DNA of 9,155 nt from Escherichia coli. GTDB taxonomy: Bacteria > Pseudomonadota > Gammaproteobacteria > Enterobacterales > Enterobacteriaceae. Below the pieces are notes generated by a model. It was not told where the DNA came from. It was given only the letters and a program-made list of their open reading frames with translations, and did no database searches. Shown here one piece after another: positions 454 through 1,205 of the stretch; the stretch's first letter is position 1, and the number at the start of each line of letters is the position of its first letter. The position numbers and the translations under genes were made by a program. Where the stretch lies: NCBI RefSeq assembly GCF_003334315.1, contig NZ_QOWR01000091.1; one strand, 5' to 3'.

Positions 454-570
454 GTAGATGCAAATGGCAATGTCACACTAAACTTTTTTGCCAATTATCG
501 AGCGTTAGCCAGCGGTGTTCGGCCAGGTGTGGCGAAAGCGGATGCGATATTTATGATCAATTACAATTAA
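454..570 (+). pseudogene. sfmF: 3' fragment (last 38 codons plus stop) of a type 1-like fimbrial subunit/adhesin gene truncated by the IS1 insertion; likely sfmF by K-12 synteny
   Basis: The frame starting directly at the IS1 boundary is open for 38 codons (VDANGNVTLNFFANYRALASGVRPGVAKADAIFMINYN*, TAA at 568-570). The C-terminus has the alternating-hydrophobic, penultimate-Tyr pattern of chaperone-usher pilin C-terminal strands and resembles the FimH C-terminus (ANYAR...GVTFVYQ). In K-12 sfmF is convergent with fimZ. Gene identity rests on synteny, not on sequence recognition. Confidence 0.45.
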
Positions 571-572
571 TA

Positions 573-1205
573 TTATATTAATTCATATAATTTGGCGTAG
601 TCGATAAGCTCTACAATTGAATGCAAACCTAGCTTGCCATAAATATTAGATTTATGCGCACTAACTGTTTTATTGCTAAGTAATAATTTATCGGCAATTT
701 CTTTATTAGATAATCCGCTAACCAGATAACGTAATATGGTCACTTCACGATTAGATAGCACAGTGATCGTTGAACTATTCGTACTACATTTATTGCTTTT
801 TATATAGTTAAGCGTTTCGCTAGGAAAAAACGTGTATCCGGAGAGGATCATCTGAACGGCATGAAAAATATCATTCTGATCATTGCATTTACTGACAAAA
901 CCGTTAGCACCAGCTTGTATCGCTCTGCCAGCATAAAAGCATTCTGATTTCGATGATAAAAATAACACTTTCACTGTGCTCTGGATTTGTTTGATCCTTT
1001 TCAGGAAGGTAAAACCGTCTGTTCCGGGCAAGTCTATATCCATAATGATTAAATCAACAGGACGGGTTCGGAGATAATCGATGGTTATGCGGTAATCATC
1101 CGTTTTCAGGACAATCTGCAATTCACTGTTTTTTTGCAACAGAACTTCAATAGACATTCTGATGATAGGATGAGTATCCATAATGATCACCGACGTTGGT
1201 TTCAT
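573..1205 (-). CDS. fimZ: FimZ, LuxR/NarL-family response regulator (receiver domain plus C-terminal LuxR-type HTH), 210 aa
   Basis: The track ORF 573..1268 (231 aa) contains the 210-aa protein starting MKPTSVIIMDTHPIIRMSIEVLL at the internal ATG at 1203-1205, which matches FimZ as I recall it. It has a receiver-domain Asp cluster (IIMDIDLPGTDG) and a LuxR HTH (LSNREVTILRYLVSGLSNKEIADKLLLSNKTVSAHK). Start choice follows the K-12/Salmonella 210-aa length; upstream ATGs at 1218-1220 and 1266-1268 are possible but lack a good SD. Confidence 0.9.
   Translation of the reverse strand: MKPTSVIIMDTHPIIRMSIEVLLQKNSELQIVLKTDDYRITIDYLRTRPVDLIIMDIDLPGTDGFTFLKRIKQIQSTVKVLFLSSKSECFYAGRAIQAGANGFVSKCNDQNDIFHAVQMILSGYTFFPSETLNYIKSNKCSTNSSTITVLSNREVTILRYLVSGLSNKEIADKLLLSNKTVSAHKSNIYGKLGLHSIVELIDYAKLYELI

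Follow-up and report, generated by a model that had tools for sequence, protein, structure and literature searches.

The window analysed here is a stretch of 9,155 nucleotides (nt) from Escherichia coli (RefSeq assembly GCF_003334315.1, contig NZ_QOWR01000091.1), and its first part holds the place where a fimbrial gene, sfmF, and the regulator gene fimZ meet tail to tail. Read directly from the window, the plus-strand stop codon TAA at 568–570 is followed by the dinucleotide TA at 571–572 and then by TTA at 573–575, the minus-strand TAA of fimZ, leaving a gap of 2 base pairs (bp) between the facing stops. This junction (568–575) is the native, annotated 3'-to-3' meeting of sfmF, the last gene of the sfm fimbrial operon, with fimZ, and by position the sfm operon is orthologous to type 1 fim in Salmonella. 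A preliminary description of the window had placed the two stops exactly and was correct that such a gap leaves no intergenic room for separate terminators. Its calls of a fimbrial gene fragment, fimZ and the insertion sequence IS1 are likewise borne out by translation, by the identity and domains of FimZ, and by insB and the terminal repeat.

On the minus strand, fimZ occupies positions 573–1205 and encodes 210 residues beginning with MKPTSV; the open reading frame as listed extends over 573–1268, and it is the MKPTSV start that gives 573–1205. The product carries a receiver domain (PF00072) and a LuxR/GerE DNA-binding domain (PF00196), and is 99–100% identical to E. coli FimZ clusters, 70–72% identical to Salmonella FimZ and 72% identical to FimZ of Citrobacter koseri. 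The annotation is confirmed in K-12 and in the collinear genome EcPF16 (RefSeq), where the annotated order is IS1A transposase, incomplete fimbria assembly protein, fimZ, tRNA-Arg, envY, ybcH, nfrA, nfrB and ISAs1 transposase. The synteny folD - sfm - fimZ - argU is present in full in EcPF16 and K-12, and its fimZ-argU part lies within the window.

The plus-strand partner at 454–570 is a 3' remnant of sfmF, a pseudogene fragment of 117 nt that consists of the last 38 codons and the TAA. Its translation, VDANGNVTLNFFANYRALASGVRPGVAKADAIFMINYN followed by the stop, matches the final 38 residues of K-12 SfmF exactly, and the RefSeq annotation of the same segment in EcPF16 is 'fimbria assembly protein, incomplete, missing N-terminus', a pseudogene. 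The frame has no usable start, the only in-frame candidates being a GTG and an ATG, respectively 13 and 5 codons ahead of the stop, and within 454–570 there is no start codon, ribosome-binding site or promoter. The promoter scan of the window gave no promoter-like hexamer pair at 454–700. The possibility of a hybrid promoter facing outward from the IS1 end was likewise set aside, the same scan giving no promoter-like site at 430–480. The preliminary description had depended on this frame being part of a gene; we find a genuine relic of sfmF that is not a functional gene here, and the plus-strand stop at 568–570 is now a relic as well, unused for translation.

Positions 1–453 on the plus strand are the 3' part of IS1, recognised by the presence of both the insB C-terminus (to 438, the frame stopping with the TAA at 436–438) and the right terminal inverted repeat, which ends ...AAGTTGGAGTCATTACC at 453. 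The window begins within IS1, and the left flank of the element was read from EcPF16 only. In that genome the equivalent of window positions 1–453 is annotated as an IS1A-family transposase, and the element is 768 bp long with GGTGATGCTGCCAACTTA at its left end. The window and EcPF16 are collinear and gapless at 99.65% identity; because 32 of the 9155 positions differ, the source of the window is a strain related to it but distinct. The left flank of IS1 in EcPF16, ...CACATCCG, corresponds to nt ~151 of sfmD and the right flank, GTAGATGCA..., to the last 117 nt of sfmF. Since these flanks map 3881 bp apart in K-12 and no 9-bp target-site duplication was found around IS1 in the EcPF16 flanks, the arrangement indicates an IS1-adjacent deletion of about 3.9 kb rather than a simple insertion, and by extension from EcPF16 the same would hold for the window. 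Comparison of the EcPF16 locus (7535–8570) with K-12 gives the deleted part as most of sfmD (from nt ~151), all of sfmH and the first 399 nt of sfmF. EcPF16 is the only one of 5426 complete E. coli genomes in which this exact IS1/sfmF joint aligns as a single piece. The sfmF remnant shares the reading frame of insB, from which it is separated by the insB TAA (436–438) and 15 nt of IS1 terminal repeat; read-through of that TAA would append 44 residues to InsB.

The 2-bp gap itself is widespread. In K-12 MG1655, sfmF ends at 563845 and fimZ at 563848, an identical gap, and a 201-bp junction probe matches 4176 of the 5426 complete E. coli genomes (77%) when a match is taken as at least 80% of the probe length, nearly all of them at 95% identity or more. 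Full-length matches, from rows sampled evenly down the ranking, all measure exactly 201 bp. The genomes that gave no match are consistent with the reported absence of sfm from phylogroup B2. In Escherichia albertii the gap is also 2 bp but is built from other bases, reading TAA-AC-CTA with TAG as the sfmF stop. The spacing is thus inherited and not accidental, and because intact loci show the same 2-bp gap, the junction is unrelated to, and independent of, the IS1 event.

Nor is the geometry unusual in K-12. In four arbitrary 50-kb stretches of that genome (200 kb in all), adjacent convergent pairs of coding sequences numbered 29, a small sample from which the fraction is rough; 8 of these 29 (28%) overlap, by 4–113 bp, and the remaining 21 are 31–380 bp apart. 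The overlap is 4 bp each in zapC/ycbX, yccX/tusE, yqfG/yqfH, yedP/dgcQ and tatD/rfaH, and is longer in yedA/vsr (12 bp), sxy/yccS (38 bp) and bioP/metR (113 bp). Tail-to-tail genes with no intergenic room are therefore a common class in K-12, about a quarter of the sampled convergent pairs. The junction of the window is already known: K-12 and thousands of genomes carry it as annotation, and its geometry is common.

A search for a terminator at the junction gave a consistent negative. The built-in terminator scan of positions 1–1700 returned nothing but a plus-strand site at 1295–1311. That scanner missed clear hairpins in relatives of E. coli, in which the T-run pairs with the A-run, and for this reason its negative was not relied on alone. 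Our own scan accepts sub-maximal stems and detected the spacers of the relatives, which served as positive controls; on either strand it found no site with a GC stem and T-run in window positions 1–1293, and no terminator-shaped site in K-12 sfmF plus fimZ or in E. albertii. Beyond the sfmF stop the first plus-strand site of the intrinsic type is thus the one at 1294–1311, and the minus strand has none through position 1. Junction RNA folds on both strands are no more stable than those of dinucleotide shuffles (z from +1.0 to -0.8). The sole hairpin at the junction has 7 bp, all A/U, with -2 to -3.7 kcal/mol and z of about 0; no stem with three or more G-C pairs lies at or near 568–575, there is no stem flanked by an A-run and a T-run, the junction being A/T-rich and stemless, and no Rfam family was found there. 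Local GC content is low, 0.33–0.38 over positions 500–900. A perfect 9-bp inverted repeat made entirely of A and T, AATTAATAT-T-ATATTAATT, does span both stops at 565–583, with its centre just to the right of them. It gives only a weak RNA fold, not a terminator. A role in protein binding or in structure was likewise rejected, the repeat being only mildly unusual (reached in 28–30 of 2000 dinucleotide shuffles, ~1.5%), and present in K-12 but broken in E. albertii. A bidirectional intrinsic terminator shared by the sfmF remnant and fimZ is not supported.

The same junction looks different in other enterobacteria. Orthologues were collected by protein search and exact-sequence look-ups; a genome-contig search with E. 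coli FimZ gave nearly all distant NarL/LuxR-type regulators, with E. albertii as the sole orthologue. In each of six relative loci FimZ has 210 residues, and the convergent neighbour, FimF of 170–177 residues, carries the PF00419 Fimbrial domain. Measured from stop to stop, the fimF-fimZ gap is 45 bp in Salmonella, 55 bp in C. koseri, 75 bp in Cedecea, 49 bp in both an Enterobacteriaceae locus and Kosakonia, and 85 bp in Buttiauxella. Each of the six spacers contains a GC-rich hairpin, and the four that were tested against shuffles gave z from -2.2 to -6.6. The hairpin in Kosakonia (AAAATACTCCCGG...CCGGGAGTATTTTTT) reaches -26.5 and -19.4 kcal/mol on the two strands with z = -6.6 and -6.5; the corresponding z values are -5.8 and -3.9 in Buttiauxella, -2.6 and -5.4 in the Enterobacteriaceae locus, and about -2.2 to -2.4 in Salmonella. 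In Kosakonia, Buttiauxella and the Enterobacteriaceae locus the spacer hairpin stands between an A-run and a T-run, as a bidirectional intrinsic terminator would, and our scan called the spacers of Cedecea, Kosakonia and Buttiauxella terminator-shaped, the latter two on both strands. The hairpins of Salmonella and C. koseri have no T-run. RNAalifold on the six spacers was uninformative (-1.05 kcal/mol), MAFFT having misaligned the short divergent hairpins, and no covariation is claimed. In an alignment of nine sequences both coding ends align and the spacer is cleanly missing in E. coli and E. albertii. By parsimony over eight lineages, the hairpin-bearing spacer would be ancestral and would have been lost in the Escherichia lineage with both coding ends kept. 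This loss of a hairpin spacer seen in other enterobacteria is the only new observation made here, and it is a minor evolutionary note.

Published data for K-12 indicate how little transcription reaches this junction. The sfm operon is cryptic in laboratory conditions and repressed by H-NS, with sfmHF among the H-NS-bound genes (PMC5797941). Read counts across sfm-fimZ are very low, in the tens (PMC7815308). In the curated K-12 Term-seq 3'-end tables there is no entry for fimZ or any sfm gene, and in two of the tabs successive entries skip from ybcJ or lpxH to argU (Adams et al. 2021, PMC7815308); these tables thus give no K-12 3' end at sfm-fimZ, but expression is so low that the absence is weak evidence. 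The bicyclomycin experiment of the same study (PMC7815308, supplementary file 2) lists Rho-dependent regions on both strands; here the column order was deduced from the published formula and reproduces the scores. The plus-strand region at 562226 lies inside sfmD (score 4.6; reads 35/11 untreated, 93/133 treated), and a minus-strand region at 564445 lies 35 nt into fimZ (score 5.5; reads 55/27 untreated, 24/65 treated). Two further minus-strand regions are antisense to sfmD (561669, score 4.0) and to sfmC (559169, score 3.2). Because of the low reads and of the Rho-dependent regions in sfmD (plus) and fimZ (minus), both units in K-12 are seen as barely transcribed, and Rho as acting on both strands ahead of the junction.

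In the same data, the 800 nt upstream of the Rho-dependent region antisense to sfmD (K-12 561669–562469, minus strand) hold 427 reads versus 55 upstream of that in fimZ (Adams et al. 2021), which points to a separate antisense promoter within sfmD/sfmH and not to read-through from fimZ; this region is deleted in the lineage of the window. A genomic SELEX (systematic evolution of ligands by exponential enrichment) peak for the RpoS holoenzyme, of intensity 45.3 and type D (intragenic), is reported at coordinate 562966 in the row sfmH > sfmF < fimZ (Shimada et al. 2017, PMC5493296) and suggests that RNA polymerase binds the AT-rich 3' portion of sfmF. In base composition, the minus-strand RNA past the fimZ stop is C-rich, with a C:G ratio of about 1.9 for ~80 nt and 1.1–2.0 over most of the IS1 antisense, which fits the C:G enrichment described for Rho-dependent regions.

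The preliminary description had proposed that the convergent transcripts must overlap or share a bidirectional terminator inside coding sequence, which would allow the fimbrial gene disrupted by IS1 and fimZ to interfere with each other's transcription. The 2-bp gap, which leaves no intergenic room, speaks for this proposal, as do the shared hairpins between these genes in relatives, which make a shared element the ancestral solution, and the position of the first terminator-shaped plus-strand site at 1294–1311, so that plus-strand read-through would be antisense to all of fimZ. Nevertheless, taken to include meaningful interference, it is judged improbable. Neither strand of the remnant, fimZ or IS1 offers a site with GC stem and T-run, and the folds resemble those of shuffles, so the terminator half of the proposal is not supported. 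The plus-strand partner lies behind IS1 with neither promoter nor start codon, and in K-12 the two units show next to no transcription, which Rho stops ahead of the junction. Overlap would follow only if both strands were transcribed to the junction; the low reads, the lack of 3' ends in the Term-seq tables and the Rho-dependent regions upstream on both strands (PMC7815308) argue against it as a necessity. The tie to the IS1 disruption was misplaced, the same gap being found in intact loci, which makes the IS1 event irrelevant to the junction.

We regard it instead as likely that the window holds a native sfmF/fimZ junction whose spacer was lost in Escherichia, that an IS1-linked deletion followed, and that convergent transcription is dealt with by H-NS silencing and by Rho release of untranslated read-through; the last two are the most likely mechanism. 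Loss of the ancestral 45–85 bp fimF-fimZ hairpin spacer would have left 2 bp with the coding ends intact, and the later IS1-associated deletion in the lineage of the window would have reduced the plus-strand partner to a remnant. Neither transcription unit would then possess a factor-independent terminator, and the AT-rich locus would be held almost silent by H-NS. The few polymerases that passed either stop would produce untranslated RNA, antisense to the gene on the other side, and would presumably be released by Rho, and any 3' ends formed would be diffuse and overlapping. If Rho failed on the plus strand, the RNA would run to the hairpin at 1294–1311 and be antisense to the whole of fimZ. 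Insertions of IS1 exert polarity by way of Rho, and the element's own promoter is weak and subject to repression by InsA. Plus-strand transcription in the window would have to cross IS1, starting from the H-NS-silenced sfmA promoter or from the promoter of IS1 itself, and the polarity and weak promoter of IS1 would make for still less convergent traffic, not for more. Some interference with fimZ could in principle occur but is unsupported, and because the plus-strand partner is a start-less and promoter-less pseudogene remnant it is probably small or negligible.

Several points weigh against this interpretation. The expression data come from K-12, in conditions without induction of sfm or fimZ. 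No Rho-dependent region is called at the junction itself, which may reflect too few reads (PMC7815308), and the plus-strand RNA past the sfmF stop is weakly C-rich, with C:G of 1.0–1.5 over the first 200 nt, so that Rho would have no obvious loading site there. The direction of the change, loss in Escherichia versus gain elsewhere, depends on parsimony over the eight lineages. Since the hairpins of Salmonella and C. koseri carry no T-run, the ancestral hairpin may have had a stabilising role and not have been an efficient terminator. Finally, the deletion is read from EcPF16, a genome that differs at 32 of 9155 positions, and the left end of IS1 lies beyond the window.

A different view of the same loss is that it was adaptive, with FimZ-activated read-through from sfm being antisense to fimZ and damping it, or read-through from fimZ damping sfmF and sfmH. 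The retention of the 2-bp spacing in E. coli and E. albertii despite differing bases, its presence in 77% of E. coli genomes and the lack of a plus-strand terminator before 1294 are in keeping with this view; retention of 2 bp is, however, expected from descent alone, and the locus shows signs of decay in Escherichia. The sfm operon, orthologous to Salmonella fim, is missing from phylogroup B2 (PMC3604780, PMC3559732) and lost from E. fergusonii, and a 5' deletion in sfmA is reported (PMC3604780). The sfmF gene of E. albertii NBRC 107761 (3136–3660, minus strand) has a premature stop (…VELGR*PTKQ…) and is a pseudogene that retains the 2-bp junction. FimZ homologues of 83–96% identity, at first candidates for other Escherichia lineages, proved to belong to E. 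coli and to carry internal deletions or an insertion (P0003, P0006, P0009, P0011). The E. albertii stop and these deleted or inserted FimZ variants point to ongoing decay of the sfm/fimZ locus, to which the IS1 deletion of the window may be added, and we consider an adaptive terminator loss quite unlikely. Equally doubtful is the broader proposition that hairpin loss in Escherichia forces mutual read-through of sfm and fimZ, each damping the other by antisense or collision and adding to the cryptic state of Sfm as compared with Salmonella type 1 fimbriae. Termination of both units by head-on collision of RNA polymerases at the junction, with neither an intrinsic terminator nor Rho, is very improbable, since, although the junction is convergent and has no canonical terminator and Rho-independent bidirectional terminators unlike intrinsic ones are reported between convergent E. 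coli genes (Ju et al. 2019, as summarised in bioRxiv 10.1101/2022.10.23.513370), that work states a need for a nascent-RNA stem-loop to position collisions and for trailing polymerases, that is dense traffic, for release, and the junction has no stem-loop and K-12 transcription is very low on both strands.

Beyond the 5' end of fimZ, the terminator-shaped plus-strand hairpin at 1294–1311 consists of ACGCGCAGCGGTGTGCGT followed by TTGTTTG (-9 kcal/mol) and is conserved in K-12 (8570–8587 of the K-12 locus). It stands upstream of argU, which encodes tRNA-Arg(UCU) at 1448–1524 on the plus strand and is preceded by a strong promoter-like site at 1389–1416. Placed between the fimZ upstream region and this site, the hairpin could insulate argU from plus-strand read-through. 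Only 45 bp separate argU from the 3' end of envY beyond it (window 1525–1570), and homology to K-12 ends at 1526, which in K-12 is the start of the DLP12 prophage. The argU attachment site is therefore unoccupied in the strain of the window, with no DLP12 genes between argU and envY. At the far end of the window, just downstream of nfrB, the minus-strand open reading frame 8872–9096 is the C-terminal part of an ISAs1-family (H-repeat-associated) transposase, with the same annotation in EcPF16.

For the window itself these results have little consequence, the junction being a standard annotated feature of E. coli and its plus-strand partner a dead remnant. More generally, the Escherichia locus would be a natural 'terminator deletion' in which the handling of convergent read-through by Rho and H-NS could be followed, together with the question whether loss of the spacer plays a part in keeping Sfm fimbriae silent in E. 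coli.

Among known systems, the bidirectional terminators mapped by SEnd-seq (Ju et al. 2019; Wang et al. 2022 preprint) are likewise convergent, and one short region must end both transcripts. Their 3' ends are defined, and they require a stem-loop and dense convergent traffic, whereas the junction of the window has no stem-loop and the K-12 locus is nearly silent with no mapped 3' ends. The overlapping convergent pairs of K-12, compared by geometry alone, similarly leave no intergenic room for a terminator, but their genes overlap whereas the pair in the window is 2 bp apart. Salmonella enterica, Citrobacter, Cedecea, Kosakonia, Buttiauxella and the Enterobacteriaceae locus have the orthologous convergent pair, with FimZ 68–72% identical to that of the window and with the C-terminal codons of both genes aligning; they differ in that a spacer of 45–85 bp separates the two genes and holds a GC-rich hairpin, which in three genera or more has the shape of a terminator, where Escherichia has neither spacer nor hairpin. 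The closest counterpart is the K-12 pair sfmF (b0534) and fimZ (b0535), the same genes in the same orientation and with the same gap as in the window, at 99.2% identity over 454–1526. In K-12 the sfmACDHF operon is intact and DLP12 is present at argU, whereas in the window the last 117 nt of sfmF stand against IS1 and envY follows directly after argU.

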